A DNA stretch of 64,000 nucleotides from a candidate division FCPU426 bacterium (GTDB lineage Bacteria > Oederibacteriota > Muellerivitia > Muellerivitales > Muellerivitaceae). The position numbers were made by a program, and so were the translations under genes. Shown here one piece after another: positions 1,630 to 40,012 of the stretch (the stretch's first letter is position 1; each line of letters begins with the position of its first letter). The notes beneath the pieces were generated by a model that searched no databases, had not been told where the DNA came from, and saw only the letters and a program-made list of their open reading frames with translations. The stretch lies in contig CAWKAR010000039.1 in the NCBI GenBank assembly GCA_963847625.1, forward strand, positions 128,001 to 192,000. Reading direction: 5' to 3'.

Positions 1630-1633
1630 TACT

Positions 1634-10594: not shown

Positions 10595-10634
10595 CAATGA
10601 CAGTTATTAAATTTGTGCTTAAAGGTGGGGTGAC

Positions 10635-14205: not shown

Positions 14206-14493
14206 TGTCATTGTGCCGATTGTCTTCATAGACCGTATTTGGAAATCGGTACCATACCGACCTCTTTAAATGCTTTATGGAAGGTCGGCATGCGACAAAT
14301 GACCGCCGAATAGGCGGTCGATAATGAGAGGCTTGAAGTAGTTGACCTGAAATTCAGGCCAACCATACTTGGCCCAAAGGGCCAATGTACAACCCAAGTT
14401 TAAATAAGCTTTTTAAGAGATTTAATTCGAACGACGAACTTAGGTCGCCACGTCGGCAACCGCCCCGATTGGGGCGCCTCCTCGCGATGACAG
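14206..14493. repeat. GTCATTGCGA...TCGCGATGAC palindromic intergenic repeat (RPE-like), interrupted by copy A
   Basis: Right arm reads CTGTCATCGCGAGGAG...CGACGTGGCGACCT on the minus strand. The left arm TGTCATTGCGA appears only after removing copy A. Confidence 0.7.
14214..14290 (+). repeat. Double-hairpin miniature element, copy A
   Basis: TGCCGAT..ATCGGTA hairpin followed by TACCGACC..GGTCGGCA hairpin. Confidence 0.85.
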
Positions 14494-14519
14494 CTTTATT
14501 TCTGTTCTTGGGAGTTATT

Positions 14520-15689
14520 TTGAAAAAATCCATGGAACTCATTTACGCCCGGGCCTTCCAGGGCGCCCCGGAGGTATTTTCCTGGGCGCCGGGGCGGGTG
14601 AACCTCATCGGGGAACACACCGACTATAACGACGGTTTCGTCCTGCCCATGGCGGTGGATAAGGGGGTCGCCCTCCTGGGAGCGGCGCGGCAGGACCGGA
14701 ACGTCCGCCTGCATTCCGCCGATTACAACCACGTGGTGGAATTTTCACTCGACCATTTGGCAACCGACCCGCAGAACCCCTGGGTCAACTATTTCAAGGG
14801 CGTGGCGGACCAGTTCCAGAAGAAGGGCCTGAAACTCAAGGGCTGCCAGGCGGTCCTGAAGGGAGACCTCCCCCAGGGGGCGGGCTTGAGCTCCTCGGCC
14901 GCCTTGGAAATCGCCTCCGCGGTGTTTTTACAAAAGACCTCCGGTTTCGAACTGCCGGACCTGGACCTGGTCAAGGCCGCCCAGTCGGCGGAAAACCAGT
15001 TCGTCGAGGTCAACTGCGGCATCATGGACCAGTACGCTTCCTACCTGTCCAAGGCGGGACATGCGCTGTTGATCGACTGCAAGAGCCTGAAATGCGGGTG
15101 GGTTCCCATGAAAGGGCCGGTGAAGGTGGTGGTTTGCGACACTCGGGTCAAGCGCACCCTGGCCAACTCGGCCTATAACGACCGGAGGAAGGAATGCGAA
15201 AGGGGATTGCGCGCGCTGAACGCCAGGCTCCCGGCGGTGCAATCCCTGAGGCACCTTACCCTGGAGGACCTGAAGAAACACCAGGGCCTCCTGGACCCGG
15301 TGGCCCTCAAGCGCGTCCGGCACGTGGTGACGGAGAACCAAAGGGTCCTGGACGCGGTGGCCGCACTGGAGAAAGGGGATTACCAGGCCATGGGCCGGCT
15401 GATGGTCGAGTCGCACGAATCCCTCAAGAACGATTACGAGGTGAGCTGCCGGGAACTGGATGTGATGGTGCGGATCGCCAGGAACAACCCGCAGGTGTAC
15501 GGGGGCCGCATGACCGGGGCCGGGTTCGGGGGCTGCACCGTGAACCTGGTGCGGGAGGAAGCCGTGGCGGGGTTCCGCCGCGAGATCCTGGACGGCTACA
15601 AGCGGGAAACGGGCCGGGACGCGGAAGTCTACGTGTTCACTCCCGCCGACGGGGCGAAAAACGCGGTGGAAGAACGCAAGGAAGTTTGA
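14520..15689 (+). CDS. galK: Galactokinase
   Basis: PGRVNLIGEHTDYNDG, GAGLSSSAA, CGIMDQ, RMTGAGFGG. TTG start after GGAG (alternative ATG 14532). Confidence 0.95.
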   Translation: MKKSMELIYARAFQGAPEVFSWAPGRVNLIGEHTDYNDGFVLPMAVDKGVALLGAARQDRNVRLHSADYNHVVEFSLDHLATDPQNPWVNYFKGVADQFQKKGLKLKGCQAVLKGDLPQGAGLSSSAALEIASAVFLQKTSGFELPDLDLVKAAQSAENQFVEVNCGIMDQYASYLSKAGHALLIDCKSLKCGWVPMKGPVKVVVCDTRVKRTLANSAYNDRRKECERGLRALNARLPAVQSLRHLTLEDLKKHQGLLDPVALKRVRHVVTENQRVLDAVAALEKGDYQAMGRLMVESHESLKNDYEVSCRELDVMVRIARNNPQVYGGRMTGAGFGGCTVNLVREEAVAGFRREILDGYKRETGRDAEVYVFTPADGAKNAVEERKEV

Positions 15690-15755
15690 GGGAATGTTAG
15701 GTAGGTGTTCTAAACATAGTCTACTTGGCTATAATGGGACAAAATATGACCAGTT

Positions 15756-16058
15756 ATGGAGTTTCAAGTGGGAACGGATGAAATCCTTAAATCAAAGCGA
15801 AACGAGATTTTAAGCTTGGCCGCCCGTTACGGGGTCAAGAACCTGCGGGTATTCGGTTCAGTGGCTCGTGGGGAGGCTGGGCCGGACAGTGACGTGGACT
15901 TCCTTGTGGATATGGAATCGGGCCGAAGCTACTTGGATATTGGCGGATTTTTAATGGATATGCAATCACTGTTAGGCCGTAAAGTGGATATTGTCACGGA
16001 ACGGGGTTTGCACCCTTATTTGCGCGAGAGGGTTTTGAAAGAATGCCAAACGGTATGA
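15756..16058 (+). CDS. Minimal nucleotidyltransferase antitoxin (MntA-like)
   Basis: FGSVARGEAGPDSDVD motif. Confidence 0.92.
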   Translation: MEFQVGTDEILKSKRNEILSLAARYGVKNLRVFGSVARGEAGPDSDVDFLVDMESGRSYLDIGGFLMDMQSLLGRKVDIVTERGLHPYLRERVLKECQTV

Positions 16059-16363
16059 AAGATGACACGATTTATTTAATCCATATCCGGGAATGCATCG
16101 CGAAGATTGAGGGATATATTAAGGGCGGCCATCAAGAGTTCCTATCAAACCAAATGGTTCAAGACGCGGTTCTTCGCAATCTTCAAGTCATGGCTGAATC
16201 CTGCCAACATTTATCCGAGAAATTAAAATCCGATCATCCTAAAATTGACTGGAATGGGTTGTCGGGTTTTAGGAACGTATTAGTCCATGACTATTTGGGA
16301 GTTGACCTTGAACGCGTATGGCTTCTCCTGGAAAAACACCTTTCGGGATTAAAAAAAATATGA
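16055..16363 (+). CDS. HepT-like (DUF86) HEPN toxin
   Basis: QDAVLRNL...IDW...FRNVLVHDY; ATGA overlaps at both ends. Confidence 0.9.
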   Translation: MKDDTIYLIHIRECIAKIEGYIKGGHQEFLSNQMVQDAVLRNLQVMAESCQHLSEKLKSDHPKIDWNGLSGFRNVLVHDYLGVDLERVWLLLEKHLSGLKKI

Positions 16364-17265
16364 AACCCAGCTTGTTGGTCATGGCCGCGGGTATGGGAAG
16401 CCGCTACGGCGGCTTGAAGCAACTGGAGTCCGTGGGCCCCAACGGGGCCACGCTCCTGGATTACTCCATCCATGACGCGCTCAAGGCCGGCTTCGGCCGG
16501 GTGGTTTACATCATCCGCAAGGACCTGGAGAAGGACTTCCGCAAGATCGTGGGTTCCAAGTGGGAAAAAACCGTCCCGGTGGACTACGTATTCCAGGAAC
16601 TCTCCCTCCTTCCACCGGGCTTCAAGGTCCCTCCCGGGCGTTCCAAGCCCTGGGGCACGGGCCACGCCATCTGGACCGCCAAGGACGCCCTGAAGGAGCC
16701 CTTCGCCGCACTGAACGCCGACGATTATTACGGCCCCAAATCCTTAAAGATGCTAGCGGATTTCCTATCCACCCTATCCGATTCCCGCGAAAATCAATTT
16801 GCCATGGTAGGTTTCCGGCTGAACCAGACCCTCTCGGAATTCGGACCGGTGGCGAGGGGGGTCTGCGAAGTGAGTCCCGACGGCTATTTGAAACGGGTGG
16901 TGGAGCGCCTCAAGATCCAAAGGGAAGGGCAGGGCATCCGATACCTGGAGGAAAACGGGACACCGGGCCCGCTTCAGGGAACGGAAACCGTCTCGATGAA
17001 CCTCTGGGGATTCACCCCGGCTTTGTTCCTCTCCCTGGAAAAAGGCCTGACCGCCTTTCTATTGGTAAGGGGCGGGGAGGAAAAATCCGAGTACCTCATC
17101 CCCCGGGAGGTGGACTCCCTCCTGCAATCGGGCCAGGCCCGAGTGAAGGTGCTTCCCACGGAGGATCCCTGGTTCGGCATGACTTATCCCGAGGACCTTT
17201 CCGCAGTCAAGAACAGGATCAAGAACATGGTGGCCCAAGGGGTCTATCCGGAAAAACTTTGGTAA
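16360..17265 (+). CDS. Sugar-phosphate nucleotidyltransferase
   Basis: MAAGMGSRYGGLKQ, KPWGTGHA, NADDYYG. Confidence 0.9.
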   Translation: MKPSLLVMAAGMGSRYGGLKQLESVGPNGATLLDYSIHDALKAGFGRVVYIIRKDLEKDFRKIVGSKWEKTVPVDYVFQELSLLPPGFKVPPGRSKPWGTGHAIWTAKDALKEPFAALNADDYYGPKSLKMLADFLSTLSDSRENQFAMVGFRLNQTLSEFGPVARGVCEVSPDGYLKRVVERLKIQREGQGIRYLEENGTPGPLQGTETVSMNLWGFTPALFLSLEKGLTAFLLVRGGEEKSEYLIPREVDSLLQSGQARVKVLPTEDPWFGMTYPEDLSAVKNRIKNMVAQGVYPEKLW

Positions 17266-17342
17266 AGCGCGGCCCCATCCCTCAAAATTTCCTGGCCGCT
17301 TTCAAAACTTCTATCTAGACACATCCCTACAAAAATAATACC

Positions 17343-17514
17343 TAGCCACGGATGTGCCGATCATCTAAAAAAATATAAGAGAGATCGGTACGATACCAGC
17401 CTCCATATCAGCTTTATGGAAGGCTGGCATGCATGGGATATATGGGATGTAAAAACACAAGTTTAAGGTTTTTTTCTATAGTCTATCCAAGTGCATCCCC
17501 TGAATCCGTGGCTA
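17343..17514. repeat. TAGCCACGGAT...ATCCGTGGCTA inverted-repeat element, interrupted by copy B
   Basis: Perfect 11-bp terminal IR, extending to 18/20 once copy B is removed. Confidence 0.8.
17355..17429 (+). repeat. Double-hairpin miniature element, copy B
   Basis: TGCCGATC..GATCGGTA plus TACCAGCC..GGCTGGCA. Confidence 0.85.
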
Positions 17515-17799
17515 AGAACTTGGTTTTGCTTAACGTCTAATAGACTTAGGATTTTCTGATTTTATTTATCTTTGTTTCTTGGTTTTGTTTTATTTGGACA
17601 ACTATGATCTAAGCATGAAAGCCCTACCAATCCCGAGAATGGTCGGAAAAGCGGTTTCAGTTTTTTGAAACAAACTGGAAACTTTCTTGGAGGTTTCAAA
17701 AATTCATCACGTAAAATAAAAATTTCATGTGCTTGGAATTGCGCGAGGCTGTAAAGTATGGGGCAGTTTCGCCATTTAAACACTTTGGAAAAGGTCATC

Positions 17800-19254
17800 A
17801 TGCCCCGCTGGACTACGATAAAATCCCCCGCCTTCAAGGTCTCCCTCGGACCCGCCTCCTGCTCCTTGGACTTGGGGGACGGAAGCGAGCGCGGCGAGTA
17901 CGTGGACCAGGACCATATCCTCACCGTCCTGGGCCGTCCCCACCGCTGCGTCAACCTCATGTACTGTTATTACCCCTACGACAAAGGCTGGCCCAAGCGC
18001 GCTTCGGAGGCCCATCCGCGGAAAACGGACCATGCCTGGTCTTTCCCTTACGACGATTATTTTCCCTTCACAGGCGGGCCGAAGGGGGACACTCACGGGA
18101 AAGTCTTCAGCCAAATGCGGGATATCCGGCGGCACGGCCAGGACGTGACCCTGACCCTCACCATGGATTGCGCCGTGACCGACGACCATATCCGCGTCAT
18201 CGCCAGGCAGTTAAGGCCCTTCGGCCGCCTGCGTCTTCGCCTCAACCACGAGTGCGACGGATTCTGGTTTTCCTTCAACCGCCGCTATTCCTACGAGGAA
18301 GTGGGGAAGTTTTTCGTTCGCTTCGCGAAGGCCTTCAAGAAGGAGGCTCCCGAGACCCTTCTCATGTGCTGTTGGGGACACGTGGAGGACCTTAAAAAGG
18401 GCCTGTTAAAGTGCGAGAAGGAACTCTCGCCGCTCCTTTACGCCGCCGACGTCTGGAGCGCGGACCAGTACGCCACCCTGGATTACGGTTACCCCTGCAA
18501 GCCCTGCGACCCGGAGAATATGGACAAGACCTACCGGCTCAACGGGGTGGATAACGTTTGGCGGCAGATCACGGGCATCCACCGGCGTTTTGTCGAATTG
18601 ACGGGCCTGGACAAGGGATTGGAGATCGGGGAATTCAACGCCGATGGAAACGTGGGGGGAGAGGCCCTCCAAGTGAGGCTCACCGAGGCTTTTTACCGGC
18701 GCGTGCTCAGGGAAAAACCCGACTTCCTCAAGGCCATCACTTATTACCAGTTCCGGGACCGGGCCCGGTTGGGCCTGGAACGGCAGGACCCGAACAATCC
18801 AGCCAATGCCTTACCGGCCATGTTCCTGCCTGTTTACCAGAAACTGCTCCGGGAACCCTATTTCCAACCGGGAGAAACTTGGACCCGGGTGCGGGGACCG
18901 CTCAAGATGGAATGGCGCGCCTCGGACGACTCGGACGGATTGGGTTGGAAAATCCCCCTGAAGGCCAAGCCCATCTTCCTGGAATTGTTGTTGGATCAGG
19001 AAGCCAACCTCATGGTGCGGGCCGGGAACAGGTGGGTTTACAAGAAGCCCGGCGTGGAAAGCGTAGACTTGACGGCCGCCGCGGCTGAGTGGGGAAGATT
19101 GAAACCCTTCCCGGTGGTCGTCTTCGCGCCGCCCGCCGACGGCACAAACCCCGGCGGGGCTTCTTCTGTCAAGGCCAAACTCAAAAAGCCCCCCCAACTG
19201 AGACTTCTATACCAGTGGAAATTACCGGGCGGAAAGAAATCATCGCCGACGTAA
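17800..19254 (+). CDS. Divergent clan GH-A (GH26-like) glycoside hydrolase without signal peptide
   Basis: LRLNHECDGFWF resembles GH26 R..HE..G.W; IGEFN is the candidate nucleophile. Confidence 0.6.
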   Translation: MPRWTTIKSPAFKVSLGPASCSLDLGDGSERGEYVDQDHILTVLGRPHRCVNLMYCYYPYDKGWPKRASEAHPRKTDHAWSFPYDDYFPFTGGPKGDTHGKVFSQMRDIRRHGQDVTLTLTMDCAVTDDHIRVIARQLRPFGRLRLRLNHECDGFWFSFNRRYSYEEVGKFFVRFAKAFKKEAPETLLMCCWGHVEDLKKGLLKCEKELSPLLYAADVWSADQYATLDYGYPCKPCDPENMDKTYRLNGVDNVWRQITGIHRRFVELTGLDKGLEIGEFNADGNVGGEALQVRLTEAFYRRVLREKPDFLKAITYYQFRDRARLGLERQDPNNPANALPAMFLPVYQKLLREPYFQPGETWTRVRGPLKMEWRASDDSDGLGWKIPLKAKPIFLELLLDQEANLMVRAGNRWVYKKPGVESVDLTAAAAEWGRLKPFPVVVFAPPADGTNPGGASSVKAKLKKPPQLRLLYQWKLPGGKKSSPT

Positions 19255-19260
19255 CACTTT

Positions 19261-21641: not shown

Positions 21642-21650
21642 GGTCTCCCT

Positions 21651-23969: not shown

Positions 23970-24104
23970 TCCGAGACCTCCAGGGGGTAAATGAATTAGG
24001 TAAAGAATCTACAACCTGGGGGCCGGACCTGCCAGGGAAAATTAGCGCCTTTTTGGGAATCAGGGGACGGAAACAAGGAAATTAAGCGACAACCAATCAG
24101 GACC

Positions 24105-24533: not shown

Positions 24534-24711
24534 GATATTCCTCCTGAAATTCGCCGGCCCCAGGAAGGAGAGGGTCTCACCGATCCGCGGGTTCCTGGAG
24601 GGGCCGAAACGATTCATGTATTTTACCCGAAGCCTTACCCTAATTCCACCCCGGGAAAACCAGCAGGTTGTGACCCCCAACCACCGTCAGGAATTGCCGG
24701 AATAAAGGAAA

Positions 24712-27483: not shown

Positions 27484-27770
27484 AGGGGGCCTTTCGCGGC
27501 TTTTTAAAGCCGTACAGGGGAAAAATATCACGCCGGTCTGGAATTTAATTTGACAGGGAATGATAACAGGAAGGTCCTTATCCGGAAACATCGGAGAATG
27601 GGAAATACCCGCGGCTTAAGCGATCTGTTCTATTAGGTTAATCGACACCTGGTCTAAAAGGCGGGGTTTGGCACTATGGCGCGTCATTTTGGCGCCATGG
27701 CGCGTCAAAAGAAAGGGTTTTCCTTTGACTCCCTTTGGGCTATGGGCGCCAGAATGTGAAAGTTGTATTT

Positions 27771-27784
27771 TTGTGGTATCATTT
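27771..27784 (+). promoter_or_regulatory. Extended -10-like motif TTGTGGTATCATTT
   Basis: Shared with 32098 and 36453, each upstream of a paralogous lipoprotein. Confidence 0.65.
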
Positions 27785-27838
27785 TTTTCTGGCTTTAAAA
27801 TAAACCATCATTCATCCAAATCCAGAGGTGATCATTTT

Positions 27839-30800
27839 ATGAAAAATCTTCAAAGGTGGATCGGTTGGACACTCTTGGCCGCGGGTTCGGCCGGAACCTT
27901 GTTCTTGGGTTGCACCAGAAGCATGAACGTCACCCCTTCCTTCCCCCTGATCTACGCGACTGAAACTTCCACCTTTGCTTTGTCATCCACAAATACTCCG
28001 ACCCCGACTAATACGCCCACCCCCACAGCCACTCCAACCATTACCGGCGGTACGATGACATCCACTAACACTCCGACCCCCCCATTCACTGTTACACCCA
28101 CGGCCACTCCCACCACAACGGATACACCCTCGAACACCACTACGGGAACTCAGTCTCCGACGAATACCGCGACTGTAACCTCTACTGCGACTAATACCCC
28201 TACCGCCACCTTGACCTCGACAAACACGCTTGCCATAACCCCAACGATGACGTCCACCCCTTGCGCCAACCCTCTTCTTCTTTCGTCCTTTAATTTCGAT
28301 ACGAATATCCAATGCTGGTCGGATTGGACAGGCGGCAACCCGATCCCAGGCGCGACAATCCAGGTGGACAATACGAACTTCCACAGCGGCGGCGGATCGT
28401 TGGAAATCATTCTTCCGTCAACGGCATCCGGGGGCATGATCGGTTTAAACTTCTCATCGGGTGTGACGATTGAACCCGGAAGCACCATGGTACTCTGGTA
28501 CATGTCTTCTTCCAGCTCTCCCACCGGCCAACTTTTCGACGCCAGCGGGACTGGTTATAATTGGGGCGGCACTCAATGGATCAGCAACCTGGCCACAACC
28601 TGGACCCCTGTTACCCTGACCTTCAATCCGATATACCCAAATGATGTTTTGCAATTAGGAATCCAGATCGGGGGTACTTTCCCCTCCTCGCCTGTAACCG
28701 TTTGGATCGACGACGTCACGATCACCCTTGCCACGACGTCCACCAACACCCCGACCCAGACCAACACCCCCACCCCCACGATTACTTTCACGCTTACGCC
28801 GACCCCTACCGTTACGCCCACTCCTACCATCACCTTAACTCCAACCATCACCGAAACGCCCACTCCAAGTCTGACCCCTATTCCCGGAATCACGGACATA
28901 ACCTCCAATATCAATGGATCCTGTGTGTCCGGTGACACGACCGGACTTACTGACAACTATAATGAAGTTGTCACCCAAGGCGGTCCTGCGCCGTACAGCC
29001 CGGTTACTTACGGATTGGGGGCGCCCGATATCGCCTACTCGTTCACGCTGTCTAATCCCACCAACCTCTTCATCAGCGTCTGCGGTGCCAGCTTTAATTC
29101 GGTGCTTTACTTGAGGACCAATCCGGCCGATCCAAGCACCACCCTGGCCCTGGACGACAATTCGGACTATTGCAATACTAATTTTTCCTCGCCTTCATCC
29201 TCTTCCTTGGTGACGGGAGTCCTCCAGCCCGGCGTCTATTTCGTTATCGTGGATGGGGTAGGCGCGACGGATTACGGGACCTACAGTCTGTGCGTATCCA
29301 TCTTCAGCCCTACCTGCTCCCTGACGCCCGTGGCAACGCCGGTGGCGCTCGTTCTCCCGACCACCACCCCCACCGATTTGGGGACTGTGTCCGTGGACGC
29401 GGTGGGTACCGGCCATATCGATTGGAATTTCGAGTACACCAACAGCTGGACCTTCACGGCTGGGGTGGCAGGTACCTACACGATCTCGCTGGATTGTTTC
29501 GACGATGGGACGGGCAAGGCCCGGGTGGCGTACGACCTTTACGATTCTGGCAACAATCTGCTTGCGAGTTCGAACGGGAACACGCCCCTGGATCAACTGA
29601 TGGGGCCCTTGTCGGTCCAACAATACACGGTAGTGGTCTACGCCTACTCGGAAGGGGCGCCAAGCGCGGATTACCGACTGGTCATCCAGGGGCCTCCGCC
29701 CACCTACACCCCCACTTTCACGATTACGCCTTGCGGGTATCCGGGAGACACCTGTACCCCTACATCCACCAATACCCCCACTGACACTATTACGCCCTGC
29801 GGGTATCCGGGAGACACCTGTACCCCAACTCCCAACAAACCCCCGATTCTCACGGTGACACCCCCCGTGCCCTTTACGCCGACGGTTCCGGCAGGCGCAT
29901 GCACTCAACTGGCAAACAGCTTCGAAACTTTCACAGGTACGAATCCTTATACCACTGAAAATGGGAGCTTAGCCCCGGATTCAAACAATCCAACCCTCTC
30001 TCAAACCACTACTGGTGCTACCGACGGCAGTAATGCCCTTGATATTGATATCACTAATAATGGTGGTTGGAACCAATTAGTGGACTGGAGTGGATTTGCC
30101 CAGAGCGATTTCACCAACGTGACCCAAATATTGATGGACGTGACGGTGGATTCGAGTTTGATTCAAACGGGTGCAGGGGCCTATAACCAACTCGCACTTG
30201 TCGCGAATCCCAGCACGTGGACGCCAATCACGGGAAATATAGATATCACAACGGGTTTACAAACCGTGGTCTTTACGGTAAGCGGTGCCCCGGCCCAGGT
30301 CAACGATCTCCTTTTGATTTTCAACACCGGTGGTTCCGGAACAGGGAACATCTACGTTGATAACGTGAGGTTTGTTTATAGCGTCTGCCCCCCGACTCCC
30401 ACCCCGACGCCCAATATCCCCGCCAATGGGCTATGGACATTCGGCCAGTTCGGCCAAGACGGAATCAACGGGGATTTCTTTGGCGCCAATGGGATTGCCG
30501 TGGATAACAGCGGAAAAATTTATGTTTCCGACATGTATATGGGAAACATCCAGGTTTTCAATTCCAACGGGAACTACCTTTACAACATCCAACCGCCCAA
30601 TCCCGATCCCTGGGGAAACGCCCCCTCTCCCTGGGGCTTGGCCGTGGACAACAACGGCAACCTTTTCGCGGCTTGTTACGACAACGGCAATGGATTGGTG
30701 GAGGAATTCAACACGTCCACCGGTGCCTTGGAAAATATGTTCTGGGGTTCCAACGATAATTCCGTCACTTATATCTATGCGCCCATGGACGTCAAACTGG

Positions 30801-31303
30801 ATAGTTCCGGGAACTTGTGGGTCGCGGACTTTCAGGGAGGTTATGTCGCCGAAATCGACCCGGCCACCGATACCGTCTTAAAAACTTCCACGAACTCTAT
30901 TACGCCCGTGGGCTTGGCGATCGACACGAGCAATACCTATGTCTACGCGACTAATCCCAATACCGGTTATGTGACCCAATACGATACCGCCACCTTGACG
31001 GCCCAAAACACCTTCAATGGGTCGGGTTGGACCACGCCATTAAGCGCCCCGGTCGGAATTGTCGTGACGCCTCTGGGCAATCTCATCATCGCTGATATTA
31101 ATAAAGGAGTTGTTGTCAATACGGATACATCCGGGAACTTGCTTGCGACGTTGCCGGTTGCCGGCAACATTCCATATAGGTTCCCCGCTTTTGACTCCGC
31201 GGGTAATTTGTATGTCACGACTAGCTATGTCAACTTCCAGTACTATTATTATATTGGCGATTATGTACAGGTGATCGACACCGGTTTCGGGTATTATCAG
31301 TAA
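27839..31303 (+). CDS. Thr/Pro-rich modular lipoprotein (two CBM-like domains, PPC-like domains, C-terminal NHL propeller)
   Basis: MKNLQRW...LFLGC lipobox; TP linkers; WIDDV and IYVDNV domain ends; GIAVD/GLAVD NHL repeats. Confidence 0.85.
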   Translation: MKNLQRWIGWTLLAAGSAGTLFLGCTRSMNVTPSFPLIYATETSTFALSSTNTPTPTNTPTPTATPTITGGTMTSTNTPTPPFTVTPTATPTTTDTPSNTTTGTQSPTNTATVTSTATNTPTATLTSTNTLAITPTMTSTPCANPLLLSSFNFDTNIQCWSDWTGGNPIPGATIQVDNTNFHSGGGSLEIILPSTASGGMIGLNFSSGVTIEPGSTMVLWYMSSSSSPTGQLFDASGTGYNWGGTQWISNLATTWTPVTLTFNPIYPNDVLQLGIQIGGTFPSSPVTVWIDDVTITLATTSTNTPTQTNTPTPTITFTLTPTPTVTPTPTITLTPTITETPTPSLTPIPGITDITSNINGSCVSGDTTGLTDNYNEVVTQGGPAPYSPVTYGLGAPDIAYSFTLSNPTNLFISVCGASFNSVLYLRTNPADPSTTLALDDNSDYCNTNFSSPSSSSLVTGVLQPGVYFVIVDGVGATDYGTYSLCVSIFSPTCSLTPVATPVALVLPTTTPTDLGTVSVDAVGTGHIDWNFEYTNSWTFTAGVAGTYTISLDCFDDGTGKARVAYDLYDSGNNLLASSNGNTPLDQLMGPLSVQQYTVVVYAYSEGAPSADYRLVIQGPPPTYTPTFTITPCGYPGDTCTPTSTNTPTDTITPCGYPGDTCTPTPNKPPILTVTPPVPFTPTVPAGACTQLANSFETFTGTNPYTTENGSLAPDSNNPTLSQTTTGATDGSNALDIDITNNGGWNQLVDWSGFAQSDFTNVTQILMDVTVDSSLIQTGAGAYNQLALVANPSTWTPITGNIDITTGLQTVVFTVSGAPAQVNDLLLIFNTGGSGTGNIYVDNVRFVYSVCPPTPTPTPNIPANGLWTFGQFGQDGINGDFFGANGIAVDNSGKIYVSDMYMGNIQVFNSNGNYLYNIQPPNPDPWGNAPSPWGLAVDNNGNLFAACYDNGNGLVEEFNTSTGALENMFWGSNDNSVTYIYAPMDVKLDSSGNLWVADFQGGYVAEIDPATDTVLKTSTNSITPVGLAIDTSNTYVYATNPNTGYVTQYDTATLTAQNTFNGSGWTTPLSAPVGIVVTPLGNLIIADINKGVVVNTDTSGNLLATLPVAGNIPYRFPAFDSAGNLYVTTSYVNFQYYYYIGDYVQVIDTGFGYYQ

Positions 31304-31390
31304 TCCAGCTAAACCCACCGGCCAGAGGAGTAACAGCCGGGTAGGAAATAAAATTTGAAAAAATCAATTAATGTTTTGAGGGAGGTTTCA

Positions 31391-31606
31391 ATGAAAAAAT
31401 CCATGGTTTTGATCTCGCTTTGTTTTTTCTTAGCCGCTTCTTCCACCCTGGCTTTCCCCGAACCCAAGGGAACGAAGTTCACCGAGGCAAAGCGCCAGGG
31501 AAAACTGGTCCGGCCCCATCCCAAATTCATGAGCCAAGGCAAACCGGCCACGGTAAAAGCCAAATTTATAAAGAAAAAGAAATTGCCTATCACTGAAAAT
31601 AAATAG
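31391..31606 (+). CDS. Small secreted basic protein
   Basis: GGAGG RBS, MKK signal peptide, Lys-rich mature part; followed by a terminator. Confidence 0.65.
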   Translation: MKKSMVLISLCFFLAASSTLAFPEPKGTKFTEAKRQGKLVRPHPKFMSQGKPATVKAKFIKKKKLPITENK

Positions 31607-31657
31607 CACTAAAGACTTAGATTCGCGCATTTGGGGTTTGAATTTATGGTTTTCGAG

Positions 31658-31687
31658 GGCCCGGTTTCACGCCGGGCCGTTTTTTTT
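31658..31687 (+). terminator. Intrinsic terminator
   Basis: GGCCCGG-7nt-CCGGGCC followed by a T tract. Confidence 0.8.
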
Positions 31688-32097
31688 ATTCCAAATCCTT
31701 ATGTATTTAACCTCTGTAAAATCAAAAAAGACTGATTTTATCGATTCCTCGTGGCCCCTTTTAAAAAAAGGACAATTGCGAGAGGGTTTAATTACACATT
31801 TTTTAATGGAATAAAATGCCACTTCCTCCATCTATAGATAGAAGTGAAAAGAAACTGAATGGGGGGGATTAAACAATTTCACAGGTCCTTATTTACCGGT
31901 AGGAAATGGAAATTCGGGACTATTTCACTTTATAAAAAGGCTTATGAAGGGCGAAACACCGCCCGGCTGGGATCGAGCTGATGTTTTTATTCGAATTTAC
32001 CATGAATTTTCAGCTTAAACTCGAGGTCCAAAAGTCCTTTCAGGGTATATGATTTCAATCATCCGGGGCCCTTTTCTATTTCAAGAGTTTCCCGGCA

Positions 32098-32111
32098 TTG
32101 TGGTATGATTT
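32098..32111 (+). promoter_or_regulatory. Extended -10-like motif TTGTGGTATGATTT
   Basis: About 60 nt upstream of ATG 32159; conserved among paralogues. Confidence 0.65.
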
Positions 32112-32158
32112 CAAGGTTTCGCGGTCATCTGGAATTTATTCAAACTCCCGAGGGAAAA

Positions 32159-35100
32159 ATGAAAAACCTACAAAGATGGATCGGTTTGACTCTATTGGCC
32201 GCGGCTTCGGCCGGCGTAGTATTCATCGGATGCACGAGGAACATGAGCGTTTCCCCCTCCGCTCCGATCACCTTAATGACGGCTACCTCCACATCGAACA
32301 CTACCACGCTTCCCACCGAGACTTTCACCAACACCCTGACGGTGACACCGACGAACACCCTGCCAGGCGTGCCGACGGACACCCCGACCGTTACGCTGAC
32401 GGAAACTCCGACGCTTACATCGACGAATACCCTTCCGGGCGTCCCGACGAACACCGCGACCAATTCGCCGACCTGCACCCTTACTTCGACAGCCACGTTA
32501 ACCCCCACGCCGACGAACACCACTACCGGGACTCAGCCCCCGACGAATACCGCAACCAATACTTCCACCGCCACCCCAACCCGGACTTATACGGTCGCCC
32601 TCACCCCAACGATGACGTCCACGCCTTGCACTGCACCTCTTCTTCTTGCATCCTATAATTTCGATACGAGTATCCAGTGCTGGACAGATTGGTCGGGAGC
32701 CTCCTCAATCCCAGGCGCGACGATTCAGGTGGACAATACGAATTTCCACAGCGGGGGTGGAGCGTTGGAAATCATCCTTCCGTCAACGGCGTCCGGTGGC
32801 AATATCGGCCTGGACTTTTCAAACGCGCCTGTGACGGTTCTACCAGGAAGTACGCTCGTCCTCTATTATATGGCTACTTATGCGACTTCCACCAACGTGC
32901 CCAACGGCCAGCTTTTCGATTCCAGTGGCGGCTACCATTGGGGAGGTACAAAATGGCTCGGCAATTTGGCCACTACTTGGACCCCGGTCACCCTGACGTT
33001 CAACCCGAATAATCCAGACGACATACAACAAGTTGGCATGCAGGTCGGGGGTACATTCCCTTCGGCAGTCACCATTTGGATCGACGACGTCACGATTACC
33101 CTCGCTCCGACGCCCACCAGCACCTCGACCCCGACCTCCACCTCCACGCTGACCGCTACCCTTACACCTACCATCACCGATTCACCCACTCCGACTCTCA
33201 CCGCCGTACCTGGAATCACGGATATCACCTCTAGTATCGACGGGACTTGCGTCTCGGGCGATACGACCGGACTCGGCGACACCTACAGCGAAACAACCAG
33301 CACCGGCACTTACGGGCAGGGTGCGCCCGACGTCGCCTATTTGATCAATGTGAGCCAACCCACCAACCTCTATATCAGCCTTTGCGGCGCCAGCTTTAAT
33401 TCCGTGCTTTACTTGAGGACCAATCCCTCTGATCCTAGCACTACCCTGGCCCTGGACGACGATTCGGATTCCTGTGGCGATACATCCTCTTCCCTAGTGA
33501 CAGGACTTCTCACACCTGGCATCTATTACGTGATCGTGGACGGAGCGACGGCTACGGATTTCGGAACCTATAGCCTTTGCCTGAGCACCTTCAATCCTAC
33601 CTGCTCGCTGACTCCTGTGGCAGTGCCGATACCGCTGGGAAGCCCGAGCGGCACGACCGACTTGGGGACTGTGTCAACGGACGCAGTGGGGACTGGCCAT
33701 GTCGATTGGGATTTCGAGTTCGCCAATAGCTGGACCTTCACGCCCTCGGTGACTGGTGACTACACAATCTCGCTGGATTGCTTCGACGATGGAAACGGCA
33801 AGGCCCGCGTGGCGTATGAACTTTTCGATTCGGGCGCGGTTTCAATCGCGAATTCGGCCGGAAATACCCCCTTGGATCAACTGACGGTTTCATTGACCCA
33901 ACAACAATATACGGTGGTGGTATACTCCGCTTCGCAAGGAGCGCCGAGCGGGGATTACCGCCTGGTCGTCACCGCGCCGATTATTCCCACGAGCACCCCC
34001 ACTCTTACAGCAACGATGACGCCGACGGTTTGTACCGGGGCACCTGTCTTCCAGACTTCCTATACTTATGATAATTGCCTCCAGGGATGGGGTCTGGATG
34101 GATCAGTCCCTGGCGAAACTCTTTTTAATTCCACTGACGTTTACCACAACTCCGCCGACGCTTGGGGCGCCTATATACCTTTCACCGCCGGCAGTAACGC
34201 CGAGGAAATTTGCATTTACCCCGCCTATGACGCGACGACCTTGACCGGTGCGACGATCACAGCGTGGATTTATTCCACGGCCGCGGGGAACGCCCAAATA
34301 TTCATAAACAGCAATAGTTATGGTGGTTATGAAAATGGCGGTTCCGTGAACGGCGCCCTTTATTATTACACTCTTGCTCCCAATACCTGGATGCCGATCA
34401 CATTGGTGACTAATTTCAGCGGCAATGAGAATGGAAACAAGGTCGATAAGTTCGGGGTCAATGTCCTGAACATGGCCGGACCCGCCACCGTCTACCTGGA
34501 TGACGTCCAGATTACCTATATGTCGACCCCGACACCCACCTTGACGCCGACCATCACCAACACTCCATTGCTAGGCACCAGCACGCCCACGAGTACCCCC
34601 ATGCCCACGTCCACTTCTTGCACCGCACCTCTGCTTCTTCCATCCTATACTTTCGATACGGATATCCAATGCTGGTCGGATTGGTCGGGTGCCTCCTCGA
34701 TCCCAGGCGCGACGATTCAGGTGGACAATACGAACTTCCACAGCGGTGGTGGAGCGTTGGAAGTCATCCTCCCCACTGTCGCCAGCGGTGCTATGATCGG
34801 CCTGGACTTTTCAAACGCGCCCGTGACTGCTTTGGCGGGAAGCACGCTCGTTCTATGGTATATGTCATCCTCCAGTTCCCCCACCGGCCAGCTTTTCGAG
34901 TCGAGCGGTGGTTATCATTATGGCGGTACGACCTGGATCCCCTCCCTGTCTACGACATGGACTCCAGTCACCCTGACGTTCAATCCGAATAATCCCAACG
35001 ACATTCAACAATTTGGCATTCAAATCGGGAGCACCTCTACACCCGTGACCATCTGGTTCGACGATGTGACGTTCACCCAGGGGAATACCCCCACGCCCAC

Positions 35101-36289
35101 GAATACATTGCCTCCGGGTGTGCCGACCAACACGCCCACAGCAACACCTTGCAACGCGTCCAGTGTCCAAACAAGTTATCCCTTCGACACCAGCCTGGAT
35201 TGCTGGCATGTGGACACCTCAAGCCAAGCGGTTGTGAGCTCGTTTATGATTTCCAACACCCAAGTCCATTCTGGAAGCGGCGCTCTCCAAGTCGCTGTCA
35301 CCGAGCCGGCTACTGCCGCCAATGTCCAGTTTGAGTTGCAATATACACCTGCTCAGGTATTGACCGGTGTCACCATCAGCGCTTGGTTATGGGTTGATCC
35401 CAGCTTTATCGGAGGCCAGGTACAAGCGTTCGAACAAAGCGGCGGCAGCTGGAAGTGGGACAGCGGGGGATGGATTACCTTCGACGCCACCAACACTGGC
35501 CAATGGATATCAATCACATACACCCCGAATTGGACTGGCGGCGATTCCACCCAAGTCCAGCTATTCGGGTTCCAGTTTTATAACATGCCCACGAATACCA
35601 CGGGTAACATCTATGTGGACGATGTGACGCTGACTTTTGCTAACACCCCCACGTTAACTTCCACGCCGACGATAACCAACACACCAGTAGCCGGAGTGCC
35701 CACCGCCACTCCTACTAATACTCCTATCGCGCTTACGGGTGAGGTGTGGACATTTGAGGATAATGGGACTGATGGCTGGTACGTCGCTTATCCCGGGGAT
35801 GATTCCGTTGCGGTAACAAATATAACCAGTTTCGGCGGAACAACCGATACCAGCACCTATGGTTTGGATATAGTAATGGCGGGCAATGAAAATGATGTCC
35901 AAGCCGAAGTAAACAGCGGTCCTCCTGGGGCCACGGCCACTTTGCCGATTAATTTCCAGCAATATAATCTTACAGGCGTCAGTTGTCAGGCTTGGTTTAA
36001 TTCCAACCTTTGGACAGGAAACACGAATGTGTTCACAGGCTTATACGTAAAAGCCAACGGCAATGCCTACGGGGGGACCTATGGTTTGGGTGCGACCGGC
36101 CCGCAAAATACATGGATTAACAACCCTGCGGGAACCTACCCTTATGATGGTTGGAACGCGTTGACTTTTGCGCCCTCCGGCGGTACCTGGACGACGGATA
36201 ATACGAACGTGACGACGGTTGGCATTGAGGTGAATTTAGGAGCCTCGGTGCCTGGGGACTTTGTGATTGACAACGTACAGCTTTATTAA
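32159..36289 (+). CDS. Thr/Pro-rich modular lipoprotein (five CBM-like domains plus PPC-like domains)
   Basis: MKNLQRW...VFIGC lipobox; domains end in WIDDV, YLDDV, WFDDV, YVDDV and VIDNV. Confidence 0.85.
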   Translation: MKNLQRWIGLTLLAAASAGVVFIGCTRNMSVSPSAPITLMTATSTSNTTTLPTETFTNTLTVTPTNTLPGVPTDTPTVTLTETPTLTSTNTLPGVPTNTATNSPTCTLTSTATLTPTPTNTTTGTQPPTNTATNTSTATPTRTYTVALTPTMTSTPCTAPLLLASYNFDTSIQCWTDWSGASSIPGATIQVDNTNFHSGGGALEIILPSTASGGNIGLDFSNAPVTVLPGSTLVLYYMATYATSTNVPNGQLFDSSGGYHWGGTKWLGNLATTWTPVTLTFNPNNPDDIQQVGMQVGGTFPSAVTIWIDDVTITLAPTPTSTSTPTSTSTLTATLTPTITDSPTPTLTAVPGITDITSSIDGTCVSGDTTGLGDTYSETTSTGTYGQGAPDVAYLINVSQPTNLYISLCGASFNSVLYLRTNPSDPSTTLALDDDSDSCGDTSSSLVTGLLTPGIYYVIVDGATATDFGTYSLCLSTFNPTCSLTPVAVPIPLGSPSGTTDLGTVSTDAVGTGHVDWDFEFANSWTFTPSVTGDYTISLDCFDDGNGKARVAYELFDSGAVSIANSAGNTPLDQLTVSLTQQQYTVVVYSASQGAPSGDYRLVVTAPIIPTSTPTLTATMTPTVCTGAPVFQTSYTYDNCLQGWGLDGSVPGETLFNSTDVYHNSADAWGAYIPFTAGSNAEEICIYPAYDATTLTGATITAWIYSTAAGNAQIFINSNSYGGYENGGSVNGALYYYTLAPNTWMPITLVTNFSGNENGNKVDKFGVNVLNMAGPATVYLDDVQITYMSTPTPTLTPTITNTPLLGTSTPTSTPMPTSTSCTAPLLLPSYTFDTDIQCWSDWSGASSIPGATIQVDNTNFHSGGGALEVILPTVASGAMIGLDFSNAPVTALAGSTLVLWYMSSSSSPTGQLFESSGGYHYGGTTWIPSLSTTWTPVTLTFNPNNPNDIQQFGIQIGSTSTPVTIWFDDVTFTQGNTPTPTNTLPPGVPTNTPTATPCNASSVQTSYPFDTSLDCWHVDTSSQAVVSSFMISNTQVHSGSGALQVAVTEPATAANVQFELQYTPAQVLTGVTISAWLWVDPSFIGGQVQAFEQSGGSWKWDSGGWITFDATNTGQWISITYTPNWTGGDSTQVQLFGFQFYNMPTNTTGNIYVDDVTLTFANTPTLTSTPTITNTPVAGVPTATPTNTPIALTGEVWTFEDNGTDGWYVAYPGDDSVAVTNITSFGGTTDTSTYGLDIVMAGNENDVQAEVNSGPPGATATLPINFQQYNLTGVSCQAWFNSNLWTGNTNVFTGLYVKANGNAYGGTYGLGATGPQNTWINNPAGTYPYDGWNALTFAPSGGTWTTDNTNVTTVGIEVNLGASVPGDFVIDNVQLY

Positions 36290-36307
36290 GAAGTAGTCCT
36301 GTTTGAC

Positions 36308-36343
36308 AAAGGCGGTCCGCTATTGGCGGACCGCCTTTTTTTT
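36308..36343 (+). terminator. Intrinsic terminator
   Basis: AAAGGCGGTCCGC-loop-GCGGACCGCCTTT plus T tract. Confidence 0.9.
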
Positions 36344-36452
36344 AGCGTACCGGGCGTAATGGACGGCCCGGGGTAAAAGACCCCTAGGTTGGCCGAAATC
36401 CCATCGAAAGTCCCACCCGGAGTTGGTTTTCTTCCTAAAACGAATAACGGCC

Positions 36453-36466
36453 TTGTGGTATCATTT
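36453..36466 (+). promoter_or_regulatory. Extended -10-like motif TTGTGGTATCATTT
   Basis: Third copy, upstream of lipoprotein 36559. Confidence 0.65.
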
Positions 36467-36558
36467 AAAGGTTCTCATAATTAAAGCTTGATTTTATCAA
36501 TGGCGGCCGGCTGTGGATTCACGGCTTAGACCTTCCTGAATAAATGGACGAGGGGAAA

Positions 36559-38259
36559 ATGAAAAACAAACAAAGTTGGATGGTTTGGACATTGCTCACT
36601 GCGGCTGCGGCCGGGGCCCTGTTCGTGGGTTGCACGAGAACCATATCCGTTCCGGCGTTGCCACCCTCCGCGAATACGTCTCCCACCAATACCCAAACGC
36701 TGACAAATACACCCACCCCGACGCCTACCCTAACCCCAACATCAACCCAAACACTAACAAATACACCCACCCCATCGCCTACTTCAACCCTAACCCCGAC
36801 ATCCACGCTCACGTCGACGTACACGCTTATCCCCACGATTGACCCAAGCATCACCCCAACCTTAACCTTCACTATTACTCTCACCCCTACGCCCACGGCT
36901 ACTTTCACTTTCACTTCCACGCCCTCCCTCACCCTGACTTCAACGGTCTCTACCACCTCCACGAATAGCTCCACCCCAACCTTTACCAGTACCCCCACCT
37001 CAACGCCGACGTTAGCTCTGTGTGCCGATCCGGCCATGATCGCCGACATGGATTGTACGCAGGGTGGGGGGGTCCCGGTCAGCCAAATCATCCTCATGGT
37101 GGACGCCAACGGGAATACCAGGAACGGGACTTGGTTCGTTTATGATAACGCAAAAACCCGGGCAGGTTGCCCTGATACGCAAAATCCCCTCAACCTGACC
37201 ACCGGTTATATAGGCAATGGCATGGAATGCACGGGGCAAGTCAATGGTTGTCCTCCAACCATGGCAGGGAATGCCCCTGCGAGTTTCGGCTTCTTTTTCG
37301 TCGCCCAGCCGGGTTATGGATTCCCCCCCGTTTATGACGCGGGCTCCCTGGGTTACACGGGCATCAGTTTCTGGGCCATGGCGAAACCCACATCCTTAAC
37401 CTACCTTAGTCCTCCCCTTTGCGGGAACGCCTTGCCTTGCCAGTTCGTGGTTCAATGGCTAAGTGGAATGACCACGCCGACCGGGAACTTGATGATTCCC
37501 CTGACGAAAAGTTGGAAGCAATATACGATTTATTTCGACCAGTTTAATACCGGAGGCACCCCTGTGGATCCTACCGCTTTATTGTTGTTAAGTTGGGGGC
37601 CTTGGACCGAAGGCAATTATCCATTCACCTACGATATCGTGGTAGACGAGGTCAAATTTGTTTCGGGCTCCGATCCCGCCCCGCCCACCCCCGTTCCGGC
37701 CGGGATGATCGATAGCAGTTCTGTTTTCTCACCAGGAAACCCGAATGCCATTAACGAAGTCTCCGGCCCCTTGGGAGTTCCGCCTAACTATTGGTTCACC
37801 TACGGCGCAGCGAGCTGTCCTTCCACCGTGACGACTTTCAACCCATGGGGGGCGTCTTTTTTCAGGTCCATGAACACGGATACCTCCGGCAATCCGGATC
37901 TTTGGTGCGTAGATTATGCCGGTACTGGTGGCGGAAATATCGGGTTTGGTGTCTCCGCGGGAGGCAACGGGACCACACCTTTAGACATTAGTCAGGGAGG
38001 CCTGTATTCAAACATTGAGTTCCTTTGCAAAGAGGGGCCCACGGGCGGTGCCGGCGCCACGAATTGGAATTTAGTAACCACAAATTCAAGCGGTACCGCT
38101 GGTTCTTGGCCCGTGACTTTGACCACGAGCTGGCAGAATTTCTCACAACCTTTTACGGCCTCAGCTGGGTTTTCACCCCAGTATGTATTGCAATTCATCT
38201 GGCAGTTTCAGGGAACGGGAGCATTCGACCTGATGCTGGACAACATCCAGGTCTATTAA
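36559..38259 (+). CDS. Thr/Pro-rich lipoprotein with two CBM11/CIA30-like domains
   Basis: LFVGC lipobox; long TP stalk; YTGISFWA, LTKSWKQYTIYF, VDEVKF, LDNIQVY. Confidence 0.8.
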   Translation: MKNKQSWMVWTLLTAAAAGALFVGCTRTISVPALPPSANTSPTNTQTLTNTPTPTPTLTPTSTQTLTNTPTPSPTSTLTPTSTLTSTYTLIPTIDPSITPTLTFTITLTPTPTATFTFTSTPSLTLTSTVSTTSTNSSTPTFTSTPTSTPTLALCADPAMIADMDCTQGGGVPVSQIILMVDANGNTRNGTWFVYDNAKTRAGCPDTQNPLNLTTGYIGNGMECTGQVNGCPPTMAGNAPASFGFFFVAQPGYGFPPVYDAGSLGYTGISFWAMAKPTSLTYLSPPLCGNALPCQFVVQWLSGMTTPTGNLMIPLTKSWKQYTIYFDQFNTGGTPVDPTALLLLSWGPWTEGNYPFTYDIVVDEVKFVSGSDPAPPTPVPAGMIDSSSVFSPGNPNAINEVSGPLGVPPNYWFTYGAASCPSTVTTFNPWGASFFRSMNTDTSGNPDLWCVDYAGTGGGNIGFGVSAGGNGTTPLDISQGGLYSNIEFLCKEGPTGGAGATNWNLVTTNSSGTAGSWPVTLTTSWQNFSQPFTASAGFSPQYVLQFIWQFQGTGAFDLMLDNIQVY

Positions 38260-38273
38260 CACTTTCGACAACT

Positions 38274-38309
38274 AAAAGCCCAAGGCCGGTTCCAGCCTTG
38301 GACTTTTTT
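38274..38309 (+). terminator. Intrinsic terminator
   Basis: CCAAGGC-loop-GCCTTGG flanked by A and T tracts. Confidence 0.75.
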
Positions 38310-38499
38310 ATTGTATTTCAACCCTTTTCTGCGATCTTCTTCAATGATTTCGAAGCGGTTCCCATGGCAGGGTTGTTTCAAGATTTTCATTGTTCTTTCA
38401 GAAACTGTTTAGGAATTTTAAAATTTTTTAGGGAAAAGGTTCCTTTTCTCCGTTATGCTTTCCTCCTGTCAACCAAGTCCTGAACCATGGGAGGAAAAT

Positions 38500-39795
38500 A
38501 TGAGGCGTATCATCCAAATCGCGGCGGCGTGCCTGGCGTTGGCGCTGTTATTCCAGGCGGGTTGTTTCCCGAAACCCGGGGAGAAAGCCGTCCGGGTGGC
38601 GGTTTTCACCACCGACCCCATCCTGATCAAGATCCTGAACGACACCATCAAGGGAATCGAGTCCCGCCACCCGGGCCTCAAGATCCAAATGGAAAACATC
38701 CCCTACAACCAGTACATGGACAAGATCACCATGGAAATGGGCGCCAACGACGCGCCGGACGTGATCAGCGTGGAGGCCAGCAACTTCGCGGACATGTACA
38801 CCCGGGGCGCCTTCGAGAACCTGATGCCCTATTTCCAAGCCGACAAGATGGACCCCAAGGACTATTACGCCTCGGCCCTGAGGCGCTACAGCCCCGACGG
38901 CGGGCTTTACGCCATCCCCACCGACATCGCCCCCACGGGTCTGCTTTACTACAATAAGAAGCTTTTCGACGAGGCCGGGGTGCCCTATCCCGACCTCAAA
39001 TGGAAATGGCCGGAGCCTTTCCTCACCTACTGCAAGAAGCTCTCGAAGAGGGACGCCAAGGGAAAGACCACCCAGTGGGCCTTCGCCGACCCCTACGGCA
39101 CCAACGCGGATGACTTCATGTTCAGCAACGGGGGATACTTCATGGACAGCGAGGACCACCCCACGCGCCTGGCGATGGACACGCCCCGGGTGCTGGAGGC
39201 CTACCGCTTCCGCTGGGACATGAGCTACACCTACCACGTGTCGCCCACCTACAGCGAGATCCAGAACTTCAACTTCGGAAACGGCGCGGAGCACATGTTC
39301 ATGAACGGCCTGGTGGCCATGATGTGCTCGGGCGTATGGCACACGGTGGGCTTCCTCCAGAAGAAGGATTTGGAGTTCGACGTGACGGAATTCCCCATGG
39401 GACCCCACGGGGACCGGGGCTGGGGCACCGGGGGGACGGGCTGCGCCATGTGGAAGGGCTCCAAGAACAAGGCTCGGGCCTGGGAAGTGATCAAGGAACT
39501 GGCGGGCGCGGACCTGGTGACCCAATTGACCCAAACGGGCATGCTCCAGCCGGCGCTCCTCAAAGTGGCCAATTCGGACGCCTTCCTGAAGAGCCCCGGG
39601 GCGGCCAACAAGAAGATCCTCCTGCAGATGCCGCAATATTCCCATTACTCGCCCTTCCTCAAGGGCTGGAGCGAGATCTGGAACGGCCAGGTGGGCCCGG
39701 GCATGGACCCGGCCTGGATGGGGAACAAGACGCCCGAGGAGGTCGTACCCCAACTGAACGCGGCGATCAACAAGAAGTATTTCGGGAAACCGTAA
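38500..39795 (+). CDS. Sugar ABC transporter substrate-binding lipoprotein (family 1)
   Basis: QAGC lipobox, APDVI, LYAIP, LYYNKKLFDEAG, FMNGLVAM. Confidence 0.9.
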   Translation: MRRIIQIAAACLALALLFQAGCFPKPGEKAVRVAVFTTDPILIKILNDTIKGIESRHPGLKIQMENIPYNQYMDKITMEMGANDAPDVISVEASNFADMYTRGAFENLMPYFQADKMDPKDYYASALRRYSPDGGLYAIPTDIAPTGLLYYNKKLFDEAGVPYPDLKWKWPEPFLTYCKKLSKRDAKGKTTQWAFADPYGTNADDFMFSNGGYFMDSEDHPTRLAMDTPRVLEAYRFRWDMSYTYHVSPTYSEIQNFNFGNGAEHMFMNGLVAMMCSGVWHTVGFLQKKDLEFDVTEFPMGPHGDRGWGTGGTGCAMWKGSKNKARAWEVIKELAGADLVTQLTQTGMLQPALLKVANSDAFLKSPGAANKKILLQMPQYSHYSPFLKGWSEIWNGQVGPGMDPAWMGNKTPEEVVPQLNAAINKKYFGKP

Positions 39796-39827
39796 AAGAA
39801 AAAAGCTAAACCGAATCATTCGCCACA

Positions 39828-39901
39828 TGCCAATCTTCCATGAAGCTTAAAAAGAGATTGGTATCGTACCGATCTCCAATAATTTTTATGGATGATCGGC
39901 A
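39828..39901 (-). repeat. Double-hairpin miniature element, copy C, inside a GCCAC^GGATTCAGGGGATG repeat
   Basis: Reverse complement reads TGCCGATC..GATCGGTA plus TACCAATC..GATTGGCA. Flanks rejoin to the same arm as the reverse complement of 17495-17512. Confidence 0.85.
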
Positions 39902-40012
39902 CGGATTCAGGGGATGACTTTAAATAAATTTGTGGTAGTTTTTCGATCTATGAAAATCCACAATCATTCATAATTCAAAATTGAGAATTCATAATTTTAG
40001 TTAAAGGTTCCC

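Follow-up and report, generated by a model that had tools for sequence, protein, structure and literature searches.

REP, BIME and REPIN sequences, which are linked to RAYT enzymes, are extragenic, lineage-restricted, high-copy doublets of inverted hairpin units; they have a conserved mismatch or bulge in the stem, their dinucleotide site is complementary to bases located at the foot of the hairpin, and they form tandem arrays and insert into other repeats; tail-to-tail REP dimers 1-2 bp apart have been described as well (PMC3116915, PMC3479197, PMC8266576, PMC3733652). TnpA-REP cuts at C^T; two guide bases located at the foot of the hairpin select this site, and a bulge in the stem is required (PMC3479197, PMC8266576). 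The enzyme of Marinomonas additionally accepts CA as a cut site, with guide positions 2 and 4 making the choice (PMC8266576). The spread of REP-like repeats is poorly understood, and CGTC repeats and SMRs have no known mover (PMC8266576, PMC3733652, PMC3119063). The features of REP/REPIN sequences named in the first sentence recur in a gene-less repeat of about 77 bases (range 75-85), which was noticed in 64,000 nucleotides of a candidate division FCPU426 bacterium (GenBank assembly GCA_963847625.1, contig CAWKAR010000039.1, positions 128,001 to 192,000). This whole stretch is called the window (G000:C39:128001-192000); G000 is the genome analysed and G051 a relative of the same genus.

The repeat works like REP/REPIN elements or the SMR elements of Haloquadratum walsbyi, yet without the GTAG tag or the cognate RAYT of REP/REPIN. 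By column counts, it has no GTAG/GGAG or CGTC tag, and its feet are Y-N-R in the centre with a host Y outside (Y, pyrimidine; R, purine; N, any base). Further differences are loops of 21-24 bases, a putative guide that is shared in the centre, varies with the target and has both ends folding back onto it, and the absence of a RAYT gene flanked by the repeat (0/31 Y1 loci). Judged from sequence, the YR junctions would agree with dinucleotide cleavage of the REP/REPIN type. SMR-A and SMR-B are 80-110 bases long, have inverted ends that show no relation to known transposons, do not duplicate their target, favour other mobile elements and have an unknown mover; however, they are archaeal, and the text consulted mentions neither a central guide nor two-hairpin covariation (PMC3119063). 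The same source presents PATEs as gene-less elements with two hairpins and a single-strand model, as short as 52 bases, but with a target of 4-6 bases and a resemblance to IS605 ends, whereas only YR is fixed here (PMC3119063); no IS200/IS605 locus tested in the model search of Y1 loci carries the repeat. The SDRs of Nostoc are also very small and insert precisely, SDR5 inside HIP1 (PMC4390886). Miniature transposable elements with inverted repeats (MITEs) moved by DDE enzymes share the short inverted ends, the lack of a gene and YR at both ends. In contrast to them, the duplicated YR of the repeat follows its own centre with fixed polarity, the terminal Y matches the centre purine in 7/7 G-centre copies, and no transposase with such ends was found. 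The SDRs (small dispersed repeats) treated by Elhai in 2008 are much shorter than the repeat and have a longer fixed target. IS110/IS1111 elements use a single target, programmed by RNA, of at least about 11 bases, and integron attC sites carry RYYYAAC and GTTRRRY boxes at their ends; the 47 and 110 different insertion contexts reported below argue against a non-autonomous IS110/IS1111 derivative, and the absence of both boxes from alignment A1 (see below) against an attC site. A literature search, with subscription papers mostly outside reach, yielded no description of the repeat family.

A precisely inserted, lineage-restricted repeat family

A hidden Markov model (HMM) trained on 79 copies selected by pattern detected 150 loci genome-wide, 122 of them full length (E<=0.01; 250 matches over both strands before merging), and had no match at E<=1 in the reversed genome. 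It is confirmed that the family is real, far beyond chance. In the window, a covariance model matched exactly the copies A, B and C at 85.6-90.3 bits, the next match having 12.2 bits. Twelve of the 150 loci overlap mechanical open reading frames (ORFs) of at least 150 aa, which are unverified as genes. No Rfam family reached its gathering threshold in the window, and the best Rfam score among ten copies was 19 bits against thresholds of about 70, which agrees with the initial annotation of the window, where the family had not been recognised. That annotation had missed how large the family is, that it inserts at YR within other repeats, and that its centre corresponds to the target.

A strict pattern was found in 17/30 other genomes of the taxonomic family and in 0/68 other genomes of the phylum. 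The model detected the repeat in 28/30 of the former and in 0/5 genomes of another class, the remaining 63 outside genomes having been searched with the pattern only. Relatives differ widely in copy number, the extremes being 0 and at least 147. When species genomes were scanned, at least 14 matches were obtained, at least 13 of them true, in records titled uncultured bacterium, proteobacterium and once Candidatus Firestonebacteria. Viral contigs and phages had no match, and the one match in plasmids was a 21-base chance hit. A pattern match in Gallionella (L007) lacked the stems and was excluded from alignment A1.

Precise insertion is evident from empty sites. The joined flanks (ten bases on each side) match elsewhere in the genome for 62/115 copies at offset 0 and for none at the six other offsets from -3 to +3; shuffled flank pairings yielded 10.8 matches on average and 16 at most. 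About nine of the 62 are tandem self-junctions, and as a background, of 3000 intergenic TG/CA sites drawn as a sample, 13.6% fell in repeated sequence. The host of copy B alone has 30 empty sites within one mismatch. The host sites are other small repeats, one of which flanks the single GxxExxY gene and another a four-helix-bundle gene; one host repeat is of the TGTC kind (PMC3733652). Gene order is kept in G051, and the orthologous spacers of A, B and C are devoid of the repeat, that of B also of the host element. In the G051 spacer of copy D, a complete unit belonging to a different subtype sits in a different host repeat, and this is an independent insertion. Tandem arrays of seven or eight copies occur in G051, and in one array of eight all copies are identical. 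The insertions occupy 47 contexts in this genome, and the 151 copies from elsewhere represent 110 distinct contexts of 14 bases, nearly all of them at YR. No replication-strand bias was seen (62 vs 56). The repeat is thus a precise, lineage-restricted insertion element, and it is very probably mobile. The proposal of a mobile REPIN/MITE-like element in the initial annotation is borne out by the precise empty sites and by the G051 spacers without the repeat.

Anatomy, covariation and choice of target

Of the 150 loci, 130 could be parsed, 115 of these have ordinary loop lengths, and 108 of the latter are distinct. The unit reads R-TGCCRAT, loop 1, ATYGGTA-Y, N, R-TACC-RNY, loop 2, RNY-GGCA-Y, with loops of mostly 21-23 (loop 1) and 22-24 bases (loop 2); the overall order is Y|R-hairpin 1, Y-N-R centre, hairpin 2-Y|R. 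The sequences of copies A to D are present as initially written, but each stem is one pair longer, so that the limits first given for the units shift (corrected in Table 1). The three variants quoted for stem 2 were correct, whereas the centre is not C(C/G)A but Y-N-R, N being T in 74, G in 35, A in 15 and C in 6 of the 130 parsed copies, and the sequence GCTTYATGGAAG, once regarded as kept, is not invariant (27 exact genome matches vs 150 loci).

Seven of the eight positions of each stem are Watson-Crick pairs in 100-107 of the 108 copies. Position 3 is the exception: it is G.T in 98/108 copies in stem 1 and A.C in 103/108 copies in stem 2, the A.C mismatch being G.T on the opposite strand, and it is Watson-Crick in merely 7/108 and 2/108 copies, respectively. 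One G.T pair per stem on opposite strands had been noticed initially, as had the likeness of hairpin 2 to an inverted hairpin 1. Unit 2 read backwards indeed resembles unit 1, loops included, and the two are homologous units in inverted orientation. Therefore, both strands present the same shape, and because each stem keeps one mismatch and the strands look alike, DNA fits better than RNA. The outer two letters of the centre are complementary to the YR at both ends.

Covariation was analyzed with alignment A1, which comprises 43 copies of this genome (40 picked mostly for diversity) and 13 from other records. It contains 85 two-sided cells, compared to 25.9+-4.7 after shuffling and at most 6 in slid controls, which flatter the result because the structure was derived from the very sequences tested. 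When the 108 copies are placed on a tree, the Watson-Crick type changes at least 1-6 times in each of ten pairs, which adds up to a minimum of 39 switches. A DNA folding model predicts two hairpins on both strands for copies A and B. These results support that the two-hairpin structure is under selection, on both strands, as the initial annotation had surmised for the structure. A sibling subfamily (Table 1) has another, fully paired stem 1 and shares the loops, a C-A-A centre, stem 2 and the T^G ends; the mismatch in stem 1 is therefore not universal.

The only fixed positions at the target are -1 and +1: the base before the unit is T in 114/130 copies and the base after it is G in 116/130. 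Copies are called A-centre or G-centre after the centre purine. T precedes 94/99 A-centre copies, while the seven G-centre copies without exception have C as their last base and C before the unit. When each context is counted once, A-centre copies are at T^G in 42/43 and G-centre copies at C^G in 6/6 cases (Fisher p 5e-7), the G-centre copies representing about three lineages on the copy tree. One host occurs with two alleles, its empty sites being C77:T13; A-centre copies fill it in the ratio T10:C2 and G-centre copies C3:T0, although the fills are not fully independent. Outside the genome, 138 of 151 distinct copies from other genomes and metagenomes have the combination T^G/CnA/T^G, and G-centre copies are at C^G in 5/5 cases; in the metagenome search the pattern prescribed both centre and right end, and loci of the G-centre type were sought out deliberately, but neither approach constrained the left flank. 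The repeat's own sequence decides its dinucleotide target. Pairing with the centre and a matching core at the joined ends would both fit this rule.

Possible movement and the search for an enzyme

Movement as a folded single strand seems probable. A fuller proposal, which we regard as evenly balanced, is that of a non-autonomous single-strand element with a central guide, on which an enzyme, probably of the HUH type, acts in trans; the precedent for the single strand and for HUH is RAYT biochemistry. The two homologous hairpin units are fused head to head around the Y-N-R centre, and folding would bring both ends onto it. The trans-acting enzyme would cut and rejoin at the YR dinucleotides, and cuts at the two sites would set free a circle of dumbbell shape, the donor being resealed. 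In this circle, the joined ends may pair across the centre with N bulged, and the same centre letters might then pair with the YR of a new target, so that T^G would be the target of C-N-A copies and C^G that of C-N-G copies. Insertion at the repeat's own end or rolling-circle copying could account for the tandem arrays. The bottom strand reads T-N-G, hairpin, C^A, which agrees with the CA scheme of the Marinomonas enzyme, yet it merely continues the stem, too. More speculatively, and with considerable doubt, the repeat might be the type member of an undescribed class: a minimal, self-closing 77-base strand that has both ends folded onto its three-letter centre, leaves as a dumbbell circle from either strand, is retargeted in nature by changing one centre letter and is moved by a non-Y1 enzyme also serving nested two-hairpin families. 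Should the mover not be a Y1 enzyme, this would point to a single-strand DNA transferase that has gone unrecognised.

The initial annotation had suggested looking for copies that flank an HUH, GIY-YIG, GxxExxY or DDE gene; the searches described below revealed none. Y1 profiles run over 31 genomes of the taxonomic family matched in 22 (PF01797) and 23 (NF047646) of them. Three TIRYT-like Y1 genes of G051 have a copy at a distance of 100-450 bp, on one side only, in wider regions that had been chosen around Y1 genes; in the single such locus that was read, the copy lies outside the terminal repeat, and the three stretches also contain toxin-antitoxin genes and insertion sequence (IS) elements. 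One Y1 gene of G051, at a distance of about 150 bp from an array of eight copies, was discarded, the array being in another repeat and outside the terminal repeat of the gene. PF04986 was found in 0/31 genomes, and its control likewise matched nowhere. In the genome analysed, searches with PF13366, PF01541, PF00589, PF00239, PF05635 and PF04480 gave no partner, and neither did an NCBIfam scan of 24 proteins or a test of paralogue-to-repeat proximity. A long version with a gene in either loop is absent from this assembly, which is 93.9% complete. A protein family with 3/6 members adjoining a copy has no family match and membrane/PDZ-like features and was dismissed; IS30 was rejected as the mover because copy D is its casualty. 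The neighbours of the copies in this genome are cargo genes such as toxin-antitoxin genes, several IS families and ordinary genes. When G000 and G051 were compared for possible cargo cassettes bounded by the repeat, the homology of shared toxin-antitoxin and ATPase genes ended at the repeat in 2/4 cases and short of it in the others.

Several results weigh against the proposal of a guided single strand moved by an HUH-type enzyme. By model search, the repeat is within about 1.5 kb of none of the 31 Y1 loci, IS200-type included. Three relatives (G064, G068 and G070; 98-99% complete) carry the repeat, with 47, 10 and 32 model matches, respectively, yet have no match to PF01797 or NF047646, and a home-made Y1 profile detected nothing in this genome beyond its three known TIRYT-like genes and a fragment. 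No recurring enzyme emerged from a Pfam scan of 150 of the 182 listed neighbouring ORFs or from the clustering of 312 ORFs of 129 metagenome loci. The GTAG tag of REP is missing. Four of the 99 A-centre copies sit in C^G, among them copy C, for which the lowest-energy DNA fold in the folding model is one long hairpin; the other centre letter, the pyrimidine, gives a weaker signal, since of seven copies with T there five begin with A and just four have A after the unit. A shared two-base core would yield the same target rule without guide pairing, and neither a circle nor an excision was observed. In addition, the four largest of the 47 contexts hold 52/115 copies, copies within one host often share the subtype, so that some have spread along with their host, and only two near-identical pairs occur in unrelated flanks.

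The matching core is the basis of a rival explanation, in which the same mobile element is moved by another recombinase or small nuclease (serine, tyrosine, GIY-YIG or PD-(D/E)XK-type) that needs a two-base core, and the centre covaries only through closing the stems. The core at the joined ends would explain the target rule and the fixed TG polarity equally well, recombinase matches in the genome number 18 for the tyrosine and 5 for the serine type, and the host repeats that flank the single GxxExxY and the four-helix-bundle gene mean that non-HUH pairs of gene and repeat exist in it. However, five candidate loci (GxxExxY, two GIY-YIG, a four-helix bundle and one resolvase) were read and none is framed by the repeat, attC-type boxes are absent, and covariation from arm to arm across 21-24 bases would be needless for double-strand recognition. 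A double-stranded circle of 76 bp would also be very strained. We consider this explanation unlikely, although it is the foremost of the rivals. The clustering of copies in a few contexts, the shared subtypes and the scarcity of near-identical pairs in unrelated flanks would instead suit a largely passive passenger, of which a few old insertions spread inside mobile host repeats and by gene conversion, the compensatory changes reflecting template switching between the inverted arms and not selection. Template switching should erase the mismatches at position 3, yet they persist, and the many contexts here and elsewhere, nearly all at YR, as well as the independent insertion of another subtype in the G051 spacer of D make such a passenger improbable.

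A structured RNA, either regulatory or as an RNA-based mobile intermediate as has been proposed for some cyanobacterial repeats, had been left open initially. Two covarying hairpins in intergenic spacers and a mild orientation bias to genes (49 antisense vs 29 sense) would be compatible with it. However, each strand has one G.U-capable stem and one A.C mismatch, position 3 of stem 2 is unpaired on the top strand in 56/56 sequences, and both gene orientations are common. Together with a copy number that varies from 0 to at least 147 between relatives, the precise empty sites and the lack of an Rfam match, this makes an RNA very improbable. Irrespective of the mover, the family represents a natural experiment, in which target choice tracks one inner letter, empty sites are exact and the structure is strand-symmetric. 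Its variants supply defined substrates for finding the enzyme and for separating guide pairing from core homology; absent an enzyme, it is a well-defined new repeat family of one uncultured lineage.

Copies in the window and further features

Table 1. Positions of the repeat copies and associated features (window coordinates unless a contig is given)
Feature	Position	Strand	Remark
Copy A, full unit	14213..14291	+	C-C-A centre, T^G site; inside TGTC-type palindromic repeat
Copy B, full unit	17354..17430	+	C-G-A centre, T^G site; within one arm of host inverted-repeat element
Copy C, full unit	39827..39902	-	C-G-A centre; C^G allele of copy B's host repeat; exception to target rule
Copy D, partial	10573..10595	-	Left arm and part of loop 1; cut by IS30
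Host inverted-repeat element around copy B	17342..17516	.	Limits approximate; also flanks the genome's single GxxExxY (PF13366) gene
IS30-family element truncating D	9518..10572	-	NF033563, 236.7 bits; 41 BLAST rows in genome
Sibling-subfamily sites	G000:C19:3564-3646, C19:104632-104714, C25:177483, C26:125764, C33:33399, C45:3852		
Second-family sites (about 66 bases)	G000:C13:123416-123817, C21:16298, 19678, 25037, C28:121233; L123:6370-7045		
Nesting sites of third family and palindromes	G000:C3:30431, C19:14979, C57:103321, C40:94790		
510-615-aa paralogues	G000:C3:26082-27833, C45:1537-3384, C37:144-1682		

Copy A lies between galK and a gene for a predicted cellulase-like protein of 1182 aa. 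Copy D is interrupted within loop 1, where the IS30 element has its left end (10572), and beyond that element the remainder of the unit is missing. The BLAST rows of this element have 98.8-100% identity, which indicates a recent expansion.

Other small repeats of the genome nest with the family. In a second two-hairpin family of about 66 bases, two central letters pair with GY at its ends, and the nesting is reciprocal, each of the two families inserting into the other. Stem 2 or the loops of the repeat also harbour nested members of a third hairpin family and of two short palindromes.

Cargo-like surroundings are most pronounced at G000:C3:24000-41100 (L058), where 10/12 copies have the same direction and separate blocks of 1-4 kb with toxin-antitoxin and AAA-DUF4143 genes, giving the region an integron-like look; 4/5 to 4/6 of the AAA-DUF4143 paralogues are near a copy. 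Paralogous proteins of 510-615 aa without a family match seem to carry the four-helix-bundle-associated repeat in frame. Three adjacent tyrosine-recombinase genes at G000:C20:38873-41282 resemble a RIT element.

Elsewhere in the window, positions 106-9518 form an island-like block with a large serine recombinase (106-1629), a short-period repeat array (about 3577-4501) and an N6-adenine methyltransferase-like gene (5379-8477). The stretch 27668-38259 encodes three large proteins that are paralogous, share internal blocks and have linkers rich in Pro/Thr, two of them without an NCBIfam match or unscanned. Outside the window, G000:C14:16425-19209 is a CRISPR array with a period of 61 bases.

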